Shown: piece by piece, positions 8,056 to 63,052 of the stretch
Layout of the letters: each line of letters starts with the position of its first letter
Numbering within the stretch: position 1 is the first letter of the stretch
DNA from: Parcubacteria group bacterium
GTDB taxonomy: Bacteria > Patescibacteriota > Minisyncoccia > Phycocordibacterales > UBA2135
Assembly: GCA_016180525.1 (NCBI GenBank)
Contig: JACPBB010000002.1
Span: forward strand, 225,044-289,043
Direction of reading: 5' to 3'
Length of the DNA stretch: 64,000 bases
Made by a program: the position numbers and the translations under genes
The notes under the pieces: generated by a model
The model's input: only the letters and a program-made list of their open reading frames with translations
Databases searched by the model: none
What the model was told of the DNA's origin: nothing

Positions 8056-8092
8056 GTTTTTATTCTTCCATATTGTTCTACGTCTGTGGAGA
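8056..8092 (+). repeat. Partial third copy (R3) of the R-repeat 5' segment
   Basis: TTTTTATTCTTCCATATTGTTCTACGTCTGTGGAGA; the sequence diverges after GTGGAGA. Confidence 0.7.
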
Positions 8093-8490
8093 TGGGCAGA
8101 TTTGAACTGCCGTGCAAAAAGGATTTTTAATTGGTTCTACGCATGTAGAGTATTTTAATTTTAAGTATCGTGCGTAAAAAATATTCAAAATCGCACGGCA
8201 CCGAGTTTCTTCCGCCGAAGCGGATTTTGGAAAACAGCCGAAACAAACTATTTTCCTATTCCGAAAATATTATGCGTATATCTCTCTATCGGAAGTCAAG
8301 AGTATACACACCAACTATCGCAATTTATGCGTATGCTGGAGCAAAACCTACGCGGTCAACTCCGAAGAGCGACGCAAGCGCTGATTCCACTTTAGAAAAT
8401 AAGTTTGCACTTATTTATGTGGCCGGTTTACGAGTCAGCCAGCTCTATGCGCGCAATTAAAAATGTTCTTCTTGGCGATGCCTTTCATCC

Positions 8491-8557
8491 CCCTAAATCA
8501 CTCCGCCAGAGGCGGATGATTGGGCAAGCGTTTTCGCGAAGCGAAAAGCGCTTTAGC
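8491..8557 (+). repeat. Structured repeat E1 (paralog of E4 at 39560-39632)
   Basis: CCCTAAATCACTCCGCC-AGA-GGCGGATGATTGGGCAAGCGTTTTCGCGAAGCGAAAAGCGCTTTAGCC. The second hairpin differs from E4 by a compensatory C:G to T:A change. Confidence 0.6.
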
Positions 8558-8831
8558 CACGCTTCGCATGGCTTATTTTGTTTACATAGAAATTTTTCAC
8601 TCGTTGTTTAAATACATTTCCCCACTTAGTTTTAAGGAATCTTTCTCTCTGGAATGCTTCCGATTGAGAAATATATTTTTCTGTATAAATCAGAACGAGA
8701 GGTCTGCGAAATTTTGTTGCAGGTATAAATCCTTTATTATGTCTCGCAACTCTTTTTTGTATATTTCTTGTACAGCCTGTATAAAGTTTTTCATCTTTCT
8801 TGCTGTACAGAATGTAAACAAAATAAGACAT
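8553..8831 (-). CDS. GIY-YIG nuclease family protein (stand-alone, 92 aa)
   Basis: YFVYILYSKKDEKLYTGCTRNIQKRVARHN matches the GIY-(x10)-YIG motif. It sits in a GC-elevated patch with repeat E1 at its 3' end. Confidence 0.7.
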   Translation of the reverse strand: MSYFVYILYSKKDEKLYTGCTRNIQKRVARHNKGFIPATKFRRPLVLIYTEKYISQSEAFQRERFLKTKWGNVFKQRVKNFYVNKISHAKRG

Positions 8832-9182: not shown

Positions 9183-9623
9183 TTAACCTCTTAATTTTCG
9201 TCCAATATCGCGCTCAGTGTCTCGCTTCTTGATAGCTTGTCGTTTATCATATTTTTTCTTTCCGCGCGCAACGGCAATCTCAAGTTTTACTTTTCCTGCC
9301 TTATTATACACTGAAATGGGCACTATTGTCAACCCTTTCTTTTTTTCATACCCCGCAATTTCAGATATTTCTTTTCTATTGAGTAAAAGCTTGCGTACCC
9401 GATTCGGATCATAATCTCCTGGGGTATTTTTCACTTGATATGGGGGAATGTGCATGCCGACTATAAACGCTTCGCCGCCACGCACTATTATATAGGCACC
9501 GGAAAGCGAGCCCTGCCCCCCCTTCAGAGACTTTACTTCAAATCCGAGCAATTTCAAACCTGCCTCGAATTTCTCAAGGACTTCATAATTGAAATATGCT
9601 TTTCTGTTTTCTATAAGCCTCAT
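9183..9623 (-). CDS. smpB: SsrA-binding protein SmpB
   Basis: Typical length (146 aa) and conserved blocks EVKSLKGG, VPISVYNKAGKVKLEIAVARGKKKYDKR. Confidence 0.85.
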   Translation of the reverse strand: MRLIENRKAYFNYEVLEKFEAGLKLLGFEVKSLKGGQGSLSGAYIIVRGGEAFIVGMHIPPYQVKNTPGDYDPNRVRKLLLNRKEISEIAGYEKKKGLTIVPISVYNKAGKVKLEIAVARGKKKYDKRQAIKKRDTERDIGRKLRG

Positions 9624-29486: not shown

Positions 29487-29518
29487 ATGAGATAATTATA
29501 ACTAATTTATTTTTTAGC

Positions 29519-29650
29519 GGAGGCGGCAGGAACCTCACTACTCAGCCGATGGTCATCGGCTTGCGTTTTCAAACCACTCGGTTTGAAGAATCCTCCACGA
29601 GAAAATTACAGTTTTCCCGACCCCTTTCGTGTTCGAATCCTGCCGTCACG
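29519..29650 (-). repeat. Structured element A: about 105-nt multi-hairpin core capped by tRNA-Ser 3'-end-like termini
   Basis: 5' GGAGGCGGCAGGA equals the last 13 nt of the adjacent tRNA-Ser (as read on the plus strand). 3' ...GTTCGAATCCTGCCG is the inverted copy. The core CTCACTACTCAGCCGATGGTCATCGGCTTGCG... is homologous to element B, with compensatory changes. Confidence 0.6.
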
Positions 29651-29700
29651 AAAAGACGCTTTTTCAAAATACCCATATGGGGTATCTTAAAAAATCATTT

Positions 29701-29787
29701 CGGAGGCGGCAGGATTCGAACCTGCGGAACCCTTTCGGGTTCAACACATTAGCAGTGTGCTGCTTTCGACCGCTCAGCCACGCCTCC
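29701..29787 (-). tRNA. tRNA-Ser (anticodon GCU)
   Basis: GGAGGCG-TG-GCTGAGCGGTCGAAAGCAGC-ACA-CTGCTAA-TGT-long variable arm (GAACCCGAAAGGGTTC)-CGCAGGTTCGAATCCTGCC-GCCTCC-G. Confidence 0.85.
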
Positions 29788-29791
29788 AATA

Positions 29792-30037
29792 TTATTTTGT
29801 TGTTATTAATTTTTTAAATGCCCCTCCTCCTTTATACCTCTTTATTTGTCTTTCTCGCAACCAAGCGTCTTTTTTTGAGAAATATTTCTCTACTTTTACC
29901 ACCTTCCACGGAATACCAGATTTCGTTGATTTATTTTTTTCAGAATTATGATAATGCAGACGCTTTTCTAAATTAGAAGTATATCCAATGTAATATTTTT
30001 TATTTATGTCACTGTAAAGAATGTATACGATAAACAT
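29792..30037 (-). CDS. GIY-YIG nuclease family protein (81 aa)
   Basis: MFIVYILYSDINKKYYIGYTSNLEKRLHYHN. Start chosen at the Met preceding the GIY motif. Its stop lies 4 nt from the tRNA-Ser 5' end. Confidence 0.65.
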   Translation of the reverse strand: MFIVYILYSDINKKYYIGYTSNLEKRLHYHNSEKNKSTKSGIPWKVVKVEKYFSKKDAWLRERQIKRYKGGGAFKKLITTK

Positions 30038-30038
30038 A

Positions 30039-30103
30039 AGCTGCTTTCGACCGCCCACCGCCTTTGGCGGGGTCCCGCTCCGGCGGTGATCAGCCACGCC
30101 TCC
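30039..30103 (-). pseudogene. Degenerate duplicate of the tRNA-Ser 5' third with a 35-nt hairpin inserted in the D-loop
   Basis: Minus-strand reading: GGAGGCGTGGCTGA-[TCACCGCCGGAGCGGGACCCCGCCAAAGGCGGTGG]-GCGGTCGAAAGCAGC. It is followed 2 nt later by the GIY-YIG start codon. Confidence 0.6.
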
Positions 30104-30270
30104 CTAAATCATAATTTGCTTTGCAAATTTGATTGGGCAATCGTCCGCTATGAGCGGAGCGATTTAGCCAAATCATTCTTTACCATACCATATTTTCATA
30201 TCTTTTCCAGTATTTTTTTACTAAAAATCTTATATACTTATTTTTAGAAAATACAAAGGAGATTTTTTAA

Positions 30271-39106: not shown

Positions 39107-39565
39107 ATGATTTTTTATAAAAAAGGTGGAACCAGAGAAGGTTTTACTTTGATTGAACTTCTTGTGGTTATTGCGATTATCGGCATTCTTTCTTCTGTGG
39201 TGCTTGCCTCCCTCAACAGCGCGCGAGAAAAATCACGGGACGCAAAGCGAGTTGCCGACTTAAAACAGATTCAGCTTGCTCTTGAACTTTACTTTGACGA
39301 TAACAACAGCACATATCCCGCAACACTTGCCCCGCTTACAACAGGAAGCTATATCCCTGTTATTCCCGAAGACCCAAATGGAGCAGCGTATAGCTACTCA
39401 GGACTCGGAGGTGCTACATGTACTGATTATCACTTGAGGGCGACGCTTGAGAATGCGGCAAACCCCGCGCTTGATAATGATTCAGATGCGGCAGCGGGAA
39501 CGGCTTGCACGGGAAGCGCCGCAGATGCTGCCGGGACTGATCCGATATATGATTTGAAGCCCTAA
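39107..39565 (+). CDS. Type IV pilin (prepilin with class III signal: leader ...REG / FTLIELLVVIAIIGIL)
   Basis: G/F cleavage site, Glu+5, hydrophobic helix; 152 aa. Confidence 0.8.
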   Translation: MIFYKKGGTREGFTLIELLVVIAIIGILSSVVLASLNSAREKSRDAKRVADLKQIQLALELYFDDNNSTYPATLAPLTTGSYIPVIPEDPNGAAYSYSGLGGATCTDYHLRATLENAANPALDNDSDAAAGTACTGSAADAAGTDPIYDLKP

Positions 39566-39632
39566 CTCACTCCGCAGTTGATTTTGCGGATGACCGGGCA
39601 AGCGTTTTTGCGAAGCAAAAAGCGCTTTAGCC
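39560..39632 (+). repeat. Structured repeat E4 (paralog of E1); it overlaps the pilin stop codon
   Basis: CCCTAACTCACTCCGCAGTTGATTTTGCGGATGACCGGGCAAGCGTTTTTGCGAAGCAAAAAGCGCTTTAGCC. Confidence 0.6.
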
Positions 39633-39721
39633 GTAATTTGCTTTTTACTGCACGCAGTGCGTTAAACAAGCTCTGTTTCATCAGGAACGGGGCTTGTTTC
39701 TGTTGATGGTATAATGAATCT

Positions 39722-59886: not shown

Positions 59887-59950
59887 GATTTAGAAATTAA
59901 GCGCACACACGTGCGCTTTTTTTAACACGAGTTCTTTTGCTCTACTCAAA

Positions 59951-60083
59951 ACTGCCGGGCTTGGAATCTCACTGCTCAGCCGATGGCCATCGGCTTGCGC
60001 TCACGAACTCAGCGGTTCGTGGGCTCCGCCGCGGGGAAACTCCCGTTTCCCCGACCCCCTTCACGTTCTCGTCCAGCCCGGCA
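59951..60083 (-). repeat. Structured element B: tRNA-Gln-like acceptor/T-stem minihelix closing a roughly 105-nt multi-hairpin core homologous to element A
   Basis: Termini CTGCCGGGCTTGG ... CCAGCCCGGCAG match the ends of tRNA-Gln at 62342-62412. Core CTCACTGCTCAGCCGATGGCCATCGGCTTGCG-CACGAACTCAGCGGTTCGTG-GGGGAAACTCCCGTTTCCCC-GACCCCC. Confidence 0.6.
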
Positions 60084-60208
60084 GTTTTTCACTGCGTTCA
60101 AAACTGGCCGTCTTGAGTTAGAACTATTGACGGTTAAGTCCCGCTTACTCGGTTTAATTTTCTTTTCGCTTATCAAAACGACGTGTCTCGTGCGAGTTAA
60201 AGAACGTG

Positions 60209-60574: not shown

Positions 60575-60694
60575 ATAAACGCACCTCGTGCGCGATTACC
60601 TGTCACGAGTTGGTTGCCGGGCTTGGTATCCTTCGCTACCCCCCTTCGCCAAGGCTTCGGAGGTCAAGAAAGCTTCGGAATACCTCTTTTGCGC

Positions 60695-60877
60695 TTAGTC
60701 ATCTTTCTTCAAGGCTTCAGTGTTCAATAGTCTTTTATACGCAAAAGCCTTTCCAGAACCTGATTTTAAATATCGCTCAAAATCTTTGGCAAGTTTCTGT
60801 CTTTTCCGCAAATCTTCTGTATAACCATAATAAAAATTCTTAGATTTTGAGCTCCATAAAATGTAGACATAATGCAT
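60695..60877 (-). CDS. GIY-YIG domain protein (60 aa, minimal domain) flanked by 12-bp inverted repeats
   Basis: MHYVYILWSSKSKNFYYGYTEDLRKRQ. CGCCAAGGCTTC at 60647-60658 and its reverse complement GAAGCCTTGGCG at 60895-60906. Confidence 0.55.
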   Translation of the reverse strand: MHYVYILWSSKSKNFYYGYTEDLRKRQKLAKDFERYLKSGSGKAFAYKRLLNTEALKKDD

Positions 60878-61012
60878 AGCTTTAGTCGTTCTGAAGCCTT
60901 GGCGAAAGACGACTGACTACCTCAGTTTAGAACCCCACACCTTGAGACCTTGTAAGGATTCTTTGGGTACTTCCAGTGTAGCAAATTGAGGCATCTCAAT
61001 CAGACCTGTTTT

Positions 61013-62341: not shown

Positions 62342-62412
62342 GCATAAGCTTCCTGCCGGGCTTGGACTCGAACCAAGATAAATAGATCCAGAGTCTATTG
62401 TCCTACCGTTAG
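62342..62412 (-). tRNA. tRNA-Gln (anticodon CUG)
   Basis: TGCCGGG-TC-GTCTAACGGTAGGAC-A-ATAGA-CTCTGGA-TCTAT-TTAT-CTTGGTTCGAGTCCAAG-CCCGGCA-G. Confidence 0.75.
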
Positions 62413-63052
62413 ACGACCCGGCAATGTTATTAATCTATACTAAAATCAAGCTTGTTTCAATAATGAGAGAATAGCAATATTTAATGTGTTAAAATAAACT
62501 CATAGAAACAATACAATCAGAAAAATGGCCGCGGTTTGTAGAAATGGTGGGGAAATGGTGTCACTCCTTCGTCCTCCTACGCTGAAGCTTTGGAAGGACT
62601 ACGGACGGGCAAGCAGGTACCTTTTTCTGTAAAAAATAGATTTAAACCCCCACACCTATCGAGTAATTCTTAACGTGCGCTACGGCGCTATTGCTCGATA
62701 GGTGTGGGGGTAAACATTTCGCCGTAGCTCTAAATTCCGCAACACAACATCCTTACATTCTCCCCAAGTAGTAGAGCAAAGCTCACTACGGGGCAGGCAA
62801 GTATGTAAGGATGTTGTTTGAGGGGGTTGTGGTTTGGGGGAGGAGGGGCGGGCGGGGTTTTGCGCTTGAACTTGAAATAGAACGTTTTTGCGCGCCCACG
62901 CAAAGGCAAAAAATTGACTTTTGCGCTTCAGGGTGTGATTATGGGGAAATAATATGTCTAAAACCAATTTAATGAAGTAAATATGCAAAAACTTTTTGCA
63001 AATTACATTCAATCTGTCTCCACTAAATTTTCTCACAAGGAGACAAGCGAAA

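Follow-up and report, generated by a model that had tools for sequence, protein, structure and literature searches.

Introns colonise a gene and splice out of it again, and integrases recombine at a site and carry the 3' end of the gene with them. Classical GIY-YIG homing endonucleases join an N-terminal GIY-YIG domain through a linker to a C-terminal DNA-binding domain, which provides site specificity, and in "collaborative homing" an intron is combined with a neighbouring free-standing endonuclease gene. The SegB protein, of about 220 amino acids, contains a DNA-binding domain as well, and the UPF0213 (COG2827) proteins are, to our knowledge, of unknown function. SegB is a free-standing GIY-YIG homing endonuclease of the tRNA gene cluster of T-even phages (phage T6); it is statistically enriched beside tRNAs of many isotypes, and has recently been shown to amplify tRNA genes in phage (PMC13096335). 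Fusions with tRNA methyltransferases have hinted that Slx1-like/UPF0213 proteins are linked to tRNA biology (PMC1564403).

In the window, by which we mean the whole 64-kb stretch of DNA that was analysed, a tRNA-Ser(GCU) gene is occupied by a cassette whose kind has three components. These are an Slx1/UPF0213-like GIY-YIG gene of about 80 codons, encoded on the strand of the tRNA and reaching with its 3' end up to or across nt 1 of a tRNA sequence, a partial pseudo-copy of this tRNA beyond the opposite end of the open reading frame (ORF), and, depending on the member, one to four GC hairpins (CCCGCC/GGCGGG stems) placed precisely within the pseudo-copy. It is rather probable that the locus is a type A member of a very large family of selfish, recombination-driven cassettes living in tRNA and tmRNA transcription units. 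By analogy, their closest experimental precedent appears to be the SegB-tRNA amplification of phage, since in both cases a GIY-YIG nuclease gene is embedded among tRNA genes, and the SegB findings fit the overlap of ORF and tRNA as well as the arrays of cassettes. However, SegB is a phage protein, whereas the cassette proteins are 80-aa catalytic cores in cellular chromosomes and stand nearer to UPF0213/Slx1 by profile, and hairpin-bearing tRNA pseudo-copies have not been described for SegB. The UPF0213 proteins BH0048 (PDB 1zg2) and EF2693 (1ywl) consist of the same minimal stand-alone GIY-YIG domain and are the best sequence-profile matches of the window's protein (ORF1) among solved structures, and conserved Y, G, R, H, N and E residues are shared with UPF0213/Slx1-like proteins; nesting in tRNA or tmRNA genes with pseudo-copies and hairpins is absent from the published analysis (PMC1564403). 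Integrase islands and prophages also insert inside a tRNA gene, where a carried partial copy regenerates the gene and leaves a partial duplicate, but the cassettes hold no integrase, have a single gene of ~250 bp as cargo, duplicate a 5' tRNA part in some cases and a 3' part in others, and bear specific hairpin insertions in the partial copy. I-TevI and collaborative homing share with them the GIY-YIG fold, an interrupted conserved gene sequence and a nuclease gene adjoining the interruption, yet the cassettes contain no intron, and their function is kept through duplication rather than through splicing of the interrupted copy. REP elements with RAYT transposases and the subterminal hairpins of IS200/IS605 are likewise small GC-rich palindromes whose stems are conserved; they go with one dedicated nuclease gene and insert precisely without target duplication. 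In contrast, the cassette enzyme is of the GIY-YIG type and not an HUH/Y1 transposase, and its hairpins are confined to tRNA pseudo-copies rather than dispersed over the genome.

Table 1. Features of the window, with positions counted from its first nucleotide.
Feature	Position	Strand	Basis or remark
Promoter region of the tRNA-Ser transcription unit (CTGGAAAA...TATGGTATGGT)	30171..30250	-	aligned to L185:5036-5135
Two-hairpin leader motif, copy 1 (GGCTAAA-H1-TTGCCCAATCA-H2-TGATTTAGG)	30100..30170	-	pattern search
Pseudo-copy, tRNA-Ser nt 1-14 (GGAGGCGTGGCTGA)	30090..30103	-	14/14 identical
GC-rich double hairpin, 35 nt, 77% GC (TCACCGCCGGAGCGGGACCCCGCCAAAGGCGGTGG)	30055..30089	-	clean insert between pseudo-copy nt 14/15
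Pseudo-copy, tRNA-Ser nt 15-29 (GCGGTCGAAAGCAGC)	30040..30054	-	15/15 identical
ORF1, 81-aa minimal GIY-YIG nuclease gene (predicted)	29792..30037	-	Pfam PF01541, E = 1.8e-15
Intact tRNA-Ser(GCU)	29701..29787	-	Rfam 61.1 bits; ARAGORN 29700-29788
Intrinsic-terminator-like hairpin 3' of tRNA-Ser	29660..29694	-	
Element A, structured, ~140 nt	29518..29659	-	bounded by inverted and direct tRNA-Ser 3'-end copies
ORF2, intact 92-aa GIY-YIG gene, tmRNA-linked lineage	8553..8831	-	PF01541, E = 4.9e-15
ORF3, internally deleted GIY-YIG remnant, 60 aa	60695..60877	-	~28 internal residues lost

The preliminary description of this locus had distinguished a partial tRNA copy, a GIY-YIG ORF and an intact tRNA-Ser, with a GC-rich hairpin of 35 nt inside the copy, and this layout is confirmed by the coordinates and by Rfam, ARAGORN and Pfam (Table 1). 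The copy had been called degenerate; it is in fact identical to tRNA-Ser at 29 of 29 positions and just interrupted. A "TT" separates its last nucleotide from ORF1, whose stop codon falls 4 nt short of the intact tRNA. Apart from positions 1716-1727, which were rejected as a second tRNA-Ser fragment since they are a chance 12-mer within a coding region, no 12-mer of the tRNA-Ser 5' third was found elsewhere in the 64 kb, so that a chance origin of the pseudo-copy is excluded. The promoter region of the tRNA-Ser unit has a weak sigma-70-like match at 30277-30248, and the first copy of the leader motif, which adjoins nt 1 of the pseudo-copy, gives an RNA fold z of -4.2; the same two-hairpin motif also adjoins tmRNA +1 in the window and in the loci L196, L199 and L202. 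ORF1 has a GC content of 28%, against 43.7% for the window, and the neighbours of the cassette are a ComF-like gene, a 108-aa ORF and a DUF6199 gene.

The ORF1 protein scores 57.4 bits against PF01541 (cut-off 22.6), which places it in the GIY-YIG superfamily. Residues Y5, Y16, G18, R26, H30, N31 and E62 are conserved in 43 homologues, with Y16, G18, R26, H30, N31 and E62 invariant. The AlphaFold2 model (pLDDT 91.8) has the beta-beta-alpha-beta-alpha GIY-YIG fold, Foldseek ranks 1zg2 and Slx1 at the top for it, and profile matches were obtained with 1zg2 (E = 3.8e-16), 1ywl (1.3e-11), SLX1 (4e-6) and, at only 8e-3, I-TevI. Judged by sequence and model, ORF1 is a predicted nuclease of the minimal stand-alone Slx1/UPF0213 (COG2827) type. 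A classical homing endonuclease of the I-TevI/Seg kind was rejected, because the 81-aa protein is a catalytic core only and its match to the group I intron endonuclease family TIGR01453, which covers residues 4-42, stays at 27.1 bits, below the cut-off of 56; NUMOD or helix-turn-helix DNA-binding modules are absent from the protein. The family is represented by 8,068 cluster representatives at E <= 1e-10 (~8,000 clusters at 50% identity). A protein identical to ORF1 exists at NCBI, and an exact-sequence lookup of ORF1 itself returned nothing.

tRNA genes are classic integration sites at which partial tRNA copies are common, and downstream, at 29518-29530, the tRNA-Ser 3' end is indeed found copied. 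Both facts would agree with an ordinary scar, that is, the remnant of an integrase island or a random local duplication that caught a small ORF; an insertion of the intron type, with a group I intron and its homing endonuclease gene, is a related possibility. An integrase-type element is recognised by a tyrosine or serine recombinase gene inside it and by attL/attR direct repeats of the tRNA 3' part; the cassette holds the 81-aa ORF only, with no integrase, and the duplicated part of the tRNA is the 5' one. A group I intron is recognised by a P3-P9 core fitting the Rfam model (RF00028) within an interrupted tRNA that needs splicing. The search for such introns that had been recommended gave no Rfam match for group I or group II, either in the window (at the gathering threshold, and locally at E <= 10) or in nine representative related loci (at the gathering threshold). 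The intron reading was rejected on these grounds and because the downstream tRNA is uninterrupted and needs no splicing; in addition, the non-coding DNA of the cassette, only ~70 nt, is too short for an intron core. Since the three-part design recurs in ~100 independent loci, scar and intron are effectively refuted by the recurrence data, and we regard this whole class of explanations as extremely improbable.

Among the three close homologues of ORF1, all 24 loci that carry them share the design, at tRNA-Ser genes with the anticodons GCU, CGA or GGA. Eighty genome loci were then fetched from many phyla, and these, together with representatives of the earlier loci and the window's own cassettes, gave 76 loci with enough flank. 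In all 76 the ORF has a tRNA or tmRNA gene as its immediate neighbour on its own strand. A same-strand tRNA starts at -60 to +40 nt of the ORF stop in 56 of the 76 and lies within 140 nt upstream in 17 further loci; the other three are the interior of an array (L070), a locus whose first in-frame stop comes well beyond the tRNA-Ser start (L073), and the tmRNA case. An exact copy of the cognate tRNA, at least 12 nt long, precedes the ORF in 42 of the 76 loci. The architecture is found at many different tRNA genes, each time with a pseudo-copy that corresponds to the local tRNA. Since the ARAGORN and Rfam calls are independent, the recurrence is hardly an artefact of the search. Two mirror layouts occur: type A, to which the window cassette belongs, reads pseudo-5', ORF, tRNA, and type B reads tRNA, ORF, pseudo-tRNA and forms tandem arrays of at least seven units of 347 bp that are only 1-2 SNPs apart. 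The hosts of homologues include Patescibacteria, Bacteroidota, Omnitrophota, Ignavibacteria and other phyla, and among them are the cultured Terrimonas ferruginea DSM 30193 and Aquimarina rubra. ORF clades cluster by tRNA identity across phyla in a neighbour-joining tree, which, being built from 80-aa proteins, is weakly resolved, and an identical protein (P0010) was found in three distinct downstream contexts. A phage origin was rejected, as tblastn gave no match in 50,697 phage records and IMG/VR gave only seven weak matches, one of which is a tRNA-Pro cassette. This recurrence beside many tRNA genes in several phyla points to a widespread selfish gene cassette, and a full-text literature search found no description of a nuclease gene nested in tRNA or tmRNA genes with pseudo-copies and hairpins, so the type is apparently undescribed so far.

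The stems of the hairpins are conserved (CCCGCC-loop-GGCGGG) and their loops vary, and homologous 35-nt double hairpins (CCACCGCC-N3-GGCGGGGTCCCGCC-N3-4-GGCGGGA) are present in L001, L041, L042, L043, L047, L049, L077, L092 and others. A GC hairpin lies within 160 nt upstream of the ORF in 60 of the 76 loci, against 0.09-0.15 expected. Cassette loci totalling 303 kb contain the motif CCCGC..GCGGG 116 times, in 98 cases within 200 nt of an ORF, versus five times in 477 kb of control Parcubacteria loci. The hairpin, far from having landed by accident in a dead copy, is a conserved cis signature of the whole family. It could even be supposed that mobility resides primarily in the hairpins, as REP- or MITE-like palindromes that the GIY-YIG nuclease mobilises in trans and that insert into the single-stranded loops of tRNA-gene cloverleaf DNA, with ORF and tRNA duplication as the autonomous partner; they would then be seen only in pseudo-copies because insertion into functional tRNAs is lethal. 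The hairpins are clean insertions, without target duplication or deletion, after tRNA nt 8, 11-17, 21-23, 26 or 34-37, mostly in the D-loop or anticodon loop; up to four share a pseudo-copy, whole arms are replaced by a hairpin in type B copies, and the association with GIY-YIG loci is strict, all of which, together with the conserved stems and variable loops, would suit such mobility. However, they are not dispersed, given that two of the three CCGCC-N(3-6)-GGCGG hairpins in the window adjoin GIY-YIG ORFs, and outside cassettes none was seen except the rare, chance-level cases of the control loci; moreover, we know of no mechanism by which a GIY-YIG enzyme inserts DNA. Primary mobility of the hairpins is, on balance, very unlikely. 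Stem mismatches, counted as a possible sign of selection at the RNA rather than the DNA level, comprise 12 G.T and 10 A.C pairs, numbers that are contaminated by tRNA arms and do not discriminate between the two. A correspondence between the hairpin insertion site and the position of the stop codon within the tRNA, as a mark of the left end, was rejected since the two positions vary independently.

The closest sequenced relative (L185), recovered from the larger protein database, has a ComF 70% identical to that of the window and, behind a homologous promoter, a different GIY-YIG subfamily in a different layout: it enters the GIY-YIG ORF directly after the promoter, whereas the window continues into the leader and the pseudo-copy. 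The L185 contig stops within the tRNA. When metagenomes were scanned with the ComF-like neighbour, the relatives obtained were all at or below 50% identity, and those at 44-50% have ComF followed by tRNA-Ser(GCU) without the cassette; L186 and L187 are too short to inform, and the L188 locus is rearranged. The same arrangement with conserved spacing, which would have marked an ancient and fixed state, was thus not what the relatives showed, as L185 differs and the 44-50% relatives are empty. Homologues of the 108-aa and DUF6199 neighbours are missing from the metagenome ComF loci, so that synteny does not extend beyond ComF followed by tRNA-Ser. No isogenic pair of filled and empty sites was found in the metagenome or the larger protein database, the nearest relative being already 30% diverged in ComF, and it is for this reason that mobility is something we infer. 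The core of the earlier proposal, a small nuclease-gene element that kept a functional tRNA by duplicating a tRNA segment, is supported and generalises well past this locus, except that the protein is not of the classical homing-endonuclease type.

Cassettes need not be selfish if the enzyme is a domesticated, tRNA-related host factor kept beside its substrate genes, with pseudo-copies and hairpins as regulatory leader or trailer structures. It might, for example, process or survey tRNA precursors, or resolve R-loops or stalled forks where tRNA genes are heavily transcribed, and Slx1 is indeed a structure-specific rather than sequence-specific nuclease. In the window, ORF2 stands between smpB (9183-9623) and a two-hairpin leader (8493-8552) followed by tmRNA (8086-8492), and this order of smpB, GIY-YIG gene and tmRNA is common to L196-L203. 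Diverse Patescibacteria keep the tmRNA-linked lineage stably placed between smpB and ssrA, at 65-76% identity, a pattern that resembles vertical inheritance or host function more than mobility. Prokaryotic Slx1-like minimal domains also occur in fusions or operons with COG4123 and TrmH-type methyltransferases, and on this ground Dunin-Horkawicz et al. suggested a role in RNA metabolism (PMC1564403). Against a host factor stand the copy number, which ranges from 0 to more than 7 per locus, the existence of pseudogenes such as ORF3, the near-identical tandem arrays in Bacteroidota, the atypical GC content of ORF1, and the presence at the same locus of different subfamilies in close relatives and of nothing in others. 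In addition, the cassette is always tied to a disabled tRNA duplicate, which no host function requires. We therefore consider a host-beneficial enzyme unlikely.

If the cassette is selfish, tRNA genes would offer it strong transcription and extreme sequence conservation. Homologous recombination between matching tRNA sequences may let it enter or amplify, and nuclease breaks in or near tRNA-gene DNA would probably stimulate this; the product would be tRNA, ORF, tRNA, of which one tRNA copy must remain functional and the other could become truncated and hairpin-bearing. Recombination between the two copies would lead either to precise excision, the window's unit being the 316 bp between its two nt 1-14 repeats, or to expansion into tandem arrays. 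The ORF would be expressed by read-through from the tRNA promoter, within the tRNA precursor; as its stop codon lies inside the tRNA in ~70% of relatives, cleavage by RNase P would leave the message non-stop, a possible brake on nuclease dosage. The hairpin, whose role we infer, may serve the nuclease as its cognate cis element, or it may act as a lock disabling the pseudo-copy. For a nuclease that targets tRNA-gene sequence, the intact tRNA next to its own gene ought still to be a substrate; the selfish reading offers no account of self-immunity, which counts against it. An 80-aa catalytic core without an obvious DNA-binding domain for specificity is another observation that speaks against it.

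A bolder idea, to which we give little credence, sees in the minimal GIY-YIG nuclease, together with its cognate GC hairpin, a mobile system of a new, structure-targeting class, in which tRNA-shaped nucleic acid is recognised, a loop is cut, and the hairpin or ORF is installed. The targets could be precursor RNA, or else DNA that is extruded as a cloverleaf or cruciform where tRNA genes are highly transcribed; the cut would fall in the D-loop or anticodon loop, and the hairpin, the ORF or both would be placed there. Rescue would come through duplication and not splicing, amounting to an "intron-free" colonisation of essential RNA genes in many bacterial phyla.

If the selfish cassette is real, a widespread and overlooked occupant of tRNA genes, with ~8,000 clusters in several phyla, would exemplify another strategy for colonising essential genes, namely partial gene duplication with a hairpin-disabled spare copy. 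It would be a cellular counterpart of the phage SegB finding and would suggest a biological role for the uncharacterised UPF0213/COG2827 proteins. It would also account for some oddities of annotation and assembly, among them partial-tRNA "fragments", tRNA-like pseudogenes, the tRNA-Pro arrays in Bacteroidota, contig breaks at cassette loci, and ORFs in databases whose N-terminus is spuriously extended through the hairpin. Since cultured carriers exist, the mechanism is directly testable.

The two further stand-alone GIY-YIG ORFs reported earlier for the window do exist, and so do the 12-bp inverted repeats around the second of them, at 60647-60658 and 60893-60904. ORF3 is probably a pseudogene, and near it, at 60615-60626, 12 nt of the tRNA-Gln 3' end are copied. 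The idea of an active family within this genome is weak, because ORF1, ORF2 and ORF3 are mutually only 40-48% identical, one is a pseudogene candidate, and ORF2 belongs to the stable smpB/tmRNA lineage. Element A, downstream of the tRNA-Ser terminator-like hairpin, is bounded by an inverted 15-mer of the tRNA-Ser T-loop/acceptor (29631-29645) and by a direct 3'-end copy with a 5-nt deletion (29518-29536). It had been said to begin with a 13-nt copy of the tRNA 3' end; the copy (CCTGCCGCCTCCG) is present but marks the distal end on the tRNA's strand. Element A may be a second tRNA pseudo-copy, remodelled far more heavily than the first, or else what is left of another element, and a paralogue of it at ~59950-60095 is bounded by copies of the tRNA-Gln 3' end.

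A minimal GIY-YIG gene lying between an intact tRNA-Ser and a hairpin-bearing partial copy (pseudo-copy) of the same tRNA is a conserved design, which is referred to here as a cassette. In the window, which derives from a metagenome-assembled genome of a parcubacterium (Patescibacteria), the coordinates and matches bear out the three-part layout of the preliminary description, with ORF1, the GIY-YIG gene of this locus, ending 4 nt upstream of tRNA-Ser(GCU), whereas the duplicate that had been called degenerate is in fact identical to the tRNA at 29 of 29 positions. A promoter-like region also lies upstream of this pseudo-copy.

Features of the GIY-YIG loci and associated elements in the window
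Feature	Coordinates	Strand	Remarks
Two-hairpin leader	30100-30170	-	~70 nt; upstream of, and fused to, the tRNA-Ser pseudo-copy
Exact copy of tRNA-Ser nt 1-14	30090-30103	-	
GC-rich insert	30055-30089	-	35 nt, 77% GC; separates the two copied segments
Exact copy of tRNA-Ser nt 15-29	30040-30054	-	2 nt upstream of ORF1 ATG
ORF1	30037-29792	-	81 aa; Pfam GIY-YIG, E = 1.8e-15
tRNA-Ser(GCU), intact	29701-29787	-	ARAGORN and Rfam, 61 bits
Terminator-like hairpin	29660-29694	-	downstream of tRNA-Ser
Element A	29518-29660	-	downstream of tRNA-Ser
Inverted 15-mer of tRNA-Ser T-loop/acceptor	29631-29645		near start of element A
Direct copy of tRNA-Ser 3' end	29518-29530		end of element A
Element A paralogue	59950-60095	-	~145-nt alignment with element A
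ORF2	8553-8831	-	between smpB (9183-9623) and tmRNA (8086-8492)
Two-hairpin leader	8493-8552	-	at tmRNA
Two-hairpin leader	39560-39633	-	solo
ORF3	60695-60877		
tRNA-Gln(CUG) gene	62352-62424	-	
12-nt direct copy of tRNA-Gln 3' end	60615-60626	-	1.7 kb downstream of gene
12-nt direct copy of tRNA-Gln 3' end	59953-59964	-	2.4 kb downstream of gene

Three close homologues of ORF1 (62–68% identity) were traced to 24 metagenomic contigs, in which the 5' part of a tRNA-Ser, broken by GC hairpins, lies upstream of each ORF, and in every sufficiently long contig that same tRNA-Ser (GCU, CGA or GGA) follows the ORF at -14 to +7 nt. Searching one genome per species with an alignment of 43 sequences yielded at least 482 confirmed relatives, and 80 loci were fetched from Patescibacteria, Omnitrophota, Bacteroidota, Ignavibacteria, Zixibacteria, Planctomycetes and others. 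Enough flank was available at 76 loci, counting the fetched ones, a single representative for every earlier set and the cassettes of the window itself. In 56 of these loci a same-strand tRNA starts at a position from -60 to +40 nt relative to the ORF stop, and in another 17 a same-strand tRNA lies at most 140 nt upstream of the ORF. The remaining three are the interior of an array (L070), the tmRNA case of the window, and L073, where the first in-frame stop comes well after the start of tRNA-Ser. Downstream partners include tRNAs for Ser (all isoacceptors), Tyr, Pro, Gly, Glu, Lys, Asp and Trp, and the stop codon lies within the tRNA in 39 of the 56 loci. Upstream of the ORF, an exact copy of the cognate tRNA of at least 12 nt is present in 42/76 loci, and a GC hairpin occurs within 160 nt in 60/76 (expected 0.09–0.15). 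This recurrence of the same design across loci effectively rules out the reading of the tRNA-Ser arrangement as a scar.

Hairpin positions, mapped by chaining exact matches between each flank and its cognate tRNA, show that the hairpins are clean insertions between tRNA nucleotides that are otherwise adjacent. Each pseudo-copy carries one to four of them, inserted after tRNA nt 8, 11–17, 21–23, 26, 29 or 34–37, mostly in the D-loop, the anticodon loop and junctions. A 35-nt double hairpin, CCACCGCC-N3-GGCGGGGTCCCGCC-N3-4-GGCGGGA, of which the insert in the window is a variant, is common to many Patescibacteria, a planctomycete and a zixibacterium. Across 303 kb of cassette loci, 116 copies of the motif CCCGC(C/T)-N3-6-(A/G)GCGGG were counted (98 of them at most 200 nt from an ORF), compared with five times in 477 kb of control Parcubacteria loci, one of these five being itself a cassette; two of the three CCGCC-N(3-6)-GGCGG hairpins in the 64-kb window adjoin GIY-YIG ORFs. 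The hairpins could serve as a nuclease recognition site, as a lock against re-excision, as a means of disabling the spare tRNA copy or as an RNA end structure.

Cassettes occur in two orders. Type A, found in the window and most Patescibacteria, runs from promoter through hairpin-bearing 5' pseudo-copy and ORF to intact tRNA, while type B is its mirror, with the intact tRNA followed by the ORF and a pseudo-copy of the 3' part or nearly the whole tRNA, into which hairpins are inserted or in which they replace whole arms. All Bacteroidota tRNA-Pro loci are of type B, with GCCCCGC-N3-5-GCGGGGC in place of the D-arm, and their pseudo-tRNAs score 43.6 bits in Rfam versus 60.5 for the normal copy. 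These loci form tandem arrays, such as that of a Chitinophagaceae member (L074) with at least seven units of 347 bp, 1–2 SNPs apart.

The AlphaFold2 model of ORF1 is confident (pLDDT 91.8). Profile comparison places the uncharacterised UPF0213 proteins BH0048 (1zg2, E = 3.8e-16) and EF2693 (1ywl) nearest among solved chains, with SLX1 next, and the match to I-TevI is far weaker than these. Among 43 homologues the GIY/YIG tyrosines, Arg26, His30/Asn31 and Glu62 are invariant or nearly so. An exhaustive profile search returned 8,068 cluster representatives at E <= 1e-10, and a tblastn search of 50,697 phage genomes gave no hit. N-terminal extensions of 20–50 residues appear in the annotation of many database homologues and are probably a gene-caller artefact of reading through the stop-free GC hairpin; in the window, the ORF1 frame has no stop codon across pseudo-copy and hairpin (30040–30097), so that a 101-aa GTG-initiated version is possible.

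The earlier view of ORF1 as a homing-endonuclease-type gene does not hold in the classical sense, because the protein is too short to hold a DNA-binding domain; its score against the group I intron endonuclease model also stays under that model's cut-off. In the suggested check for a group I intron, no Rfam intron model matched in the window or in nine related loci, which argues against an intron; the published tRNA group I introns of Patescibacteria are a different phenomenon. The cassette, which contains no integrase gene, does not qualify as an integrase element either. Dunin-Horkawicz et al. (PMC1564403) described fusions and operon links of prokaryotic Slx1-like minimal domains with COG4123 and TrmH-type methyltransferases and suggested a link to RNA metabolism; they reported no linkage to tRNA genes. 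The best experimental precedent is SegB of phage T6, a GIY-YIG endonuclease enriched beside tRNA genes, which drives tandem amplification of a tRNA-Tyr and segB unit through cleavage and through recombination that joins the 5' end of the tRNA with the 3' end of segB (PMC13096335). The cassette would work similarly to such free-standing homing endonuclease genes. It also shares with tRNA-targeting integrative elements the use of a partial tRNA that it carries to regenerate function. In full-text searches of a limited library, no account came up of minimal GIY-YIG genes that are nested in tRNA or tmRNA genes of bacteria and accompanied by hairpin-bearing pseudo-copies, and as far as this literature goes the arrangement appears to be undescribed.

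Alongside the observed architecture, recurrence, hairpin association, arrays and nuclease fold, we propose that the cassette is a selfish gene riding on tRNA transcription. Integration, excision and amplification would proceed by homologous recombination across the tRNA homology, stimulated by nuclease-made breaks, with selection keeping one tRNA copy intact while the second is truncated and hairpin-bearing. The two tRNA-Ser nt 1–14 repeats in the window start 316 bp apart, and recombination between them would recreate a plain tRNA gene. At loci whose stop codon falls within the tRNA, processing by RNase P would leave the message without a stop codon, and this may restrict the dosage of the nuclease.

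No isogenic empty site was found among the relatives' loci compared, so mobility is something we infer. ORF1 has 28% GC versus 43.7% for the window. A neighbor-joining tree of 82 ORFs, short and weak, groups them largely by partner tRNA, sometimes across phyla (tRNA-Glu in Omnitrophota and Planctomycetes; tRNA-Ser(UGA) in Ignavibacteria and Bacteroidota). The protein P0010, identical in each case, is found with three different sequences directly after the tRNA. Contigs with another identical cassette (P0003) show strain-level variation immediately 3' of its tRNA: ~280 nt beyond tRNA-Ser, some, not all, carry a gene for an IS200-like Y1 transposase (L002–L004), and L001 has an ABC transporter there. 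In five Parcubacteria loci (L105–107, L179, L183) ComF is followed by tRNA-Ser(GCU) without a cassette; the cassette of L116 contains an ORF with 37% identity to ORF1. In the closest relative (L185, GCA_964653905.1; ComF 70% identical), the promoter is alignable base-for-base with that of the window and the first 55 nt of the tRNA are identical. The promoter is directly followed by a GIY-YIG ORF, a 12-nt tRNA 5' pseudo-fragment and a 22-nt palindrome adjoining the tRNA. This ORF belongs to a different subfamily, being 46% identical to ORF2 and visibly less similar to ORF1 in global alignment; a different subfamily behind the same promoter shows turnover of cassettes at one tRNA locus.

At the tmRNA, the order smpB, GIY-YIG, tmRNA is kept in other Patescibacteria, with ORF2 homologues 65–76% identical. 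A two-hairpin leader, H1-TTGCCCAxxCA-H2-GTGAxTTAG, ends exactly at tmRNA nt +1 in several Patescibacteria (the window, L196, L199, L202). Both stems covary, differing in sequence among copies with pairing kept, and no Rfam family corresponds to the leader; it may serve stable RNAs as a promoter or as a processing leader. The solo copy lies between a pilin-like gene and another gene, which we take to encode a prepilin-peptidase-like membrane protein.

ORF3 has lost ~28 internal residues; a copy of the tRNA-Gln 3' end follows 75 nt on, and the tRNA-Gln gene lies 1.5 kb upstream on the same strand. The deletion and the 3'-end copy fit a decayed type B cassette. Between the tRNA-Gln gene and its 3'-end copies lie a 428-aa ORF, the degenerate ORF3 and a 121-aa ORF, and the pattern looks like nested insertions at one tRNA. 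Element A, a structured stretch, shares with its paralogue the core GCAAGCCGATGNCCATCGGCTGAGNAGTGAG and two hairpins that differ in sequence with pairing ability kept. Both lie between an inverted and a direct 3'-end copy of a same-strand tRNA in the vicinity, which is tRNA-Ser in the case of element A and tRNA-Gln in that of the paralogue. Neither an Rfam family nor any of the 203 fetched loci matches element A; candidate identities are a small RNA, a miniature tRNA-targeting element and a conserved integrative-element end.

In another Parcubacteria locus (L134:3811-4197), an intact tRNA-Ser(GCU) is preceded, with no ORF in the stretch, by a pseudo-copy of nt 1 to ~72 with two long structured insertions, one each in the D-loop and the T-loop, neither of them the GC hairpin, whereas a near-identical tRNA in L179 has a plain promoter-tRNA order, which suggests that insertion-bearing upstream pseudo-copies are a broader phenomenon in this group.
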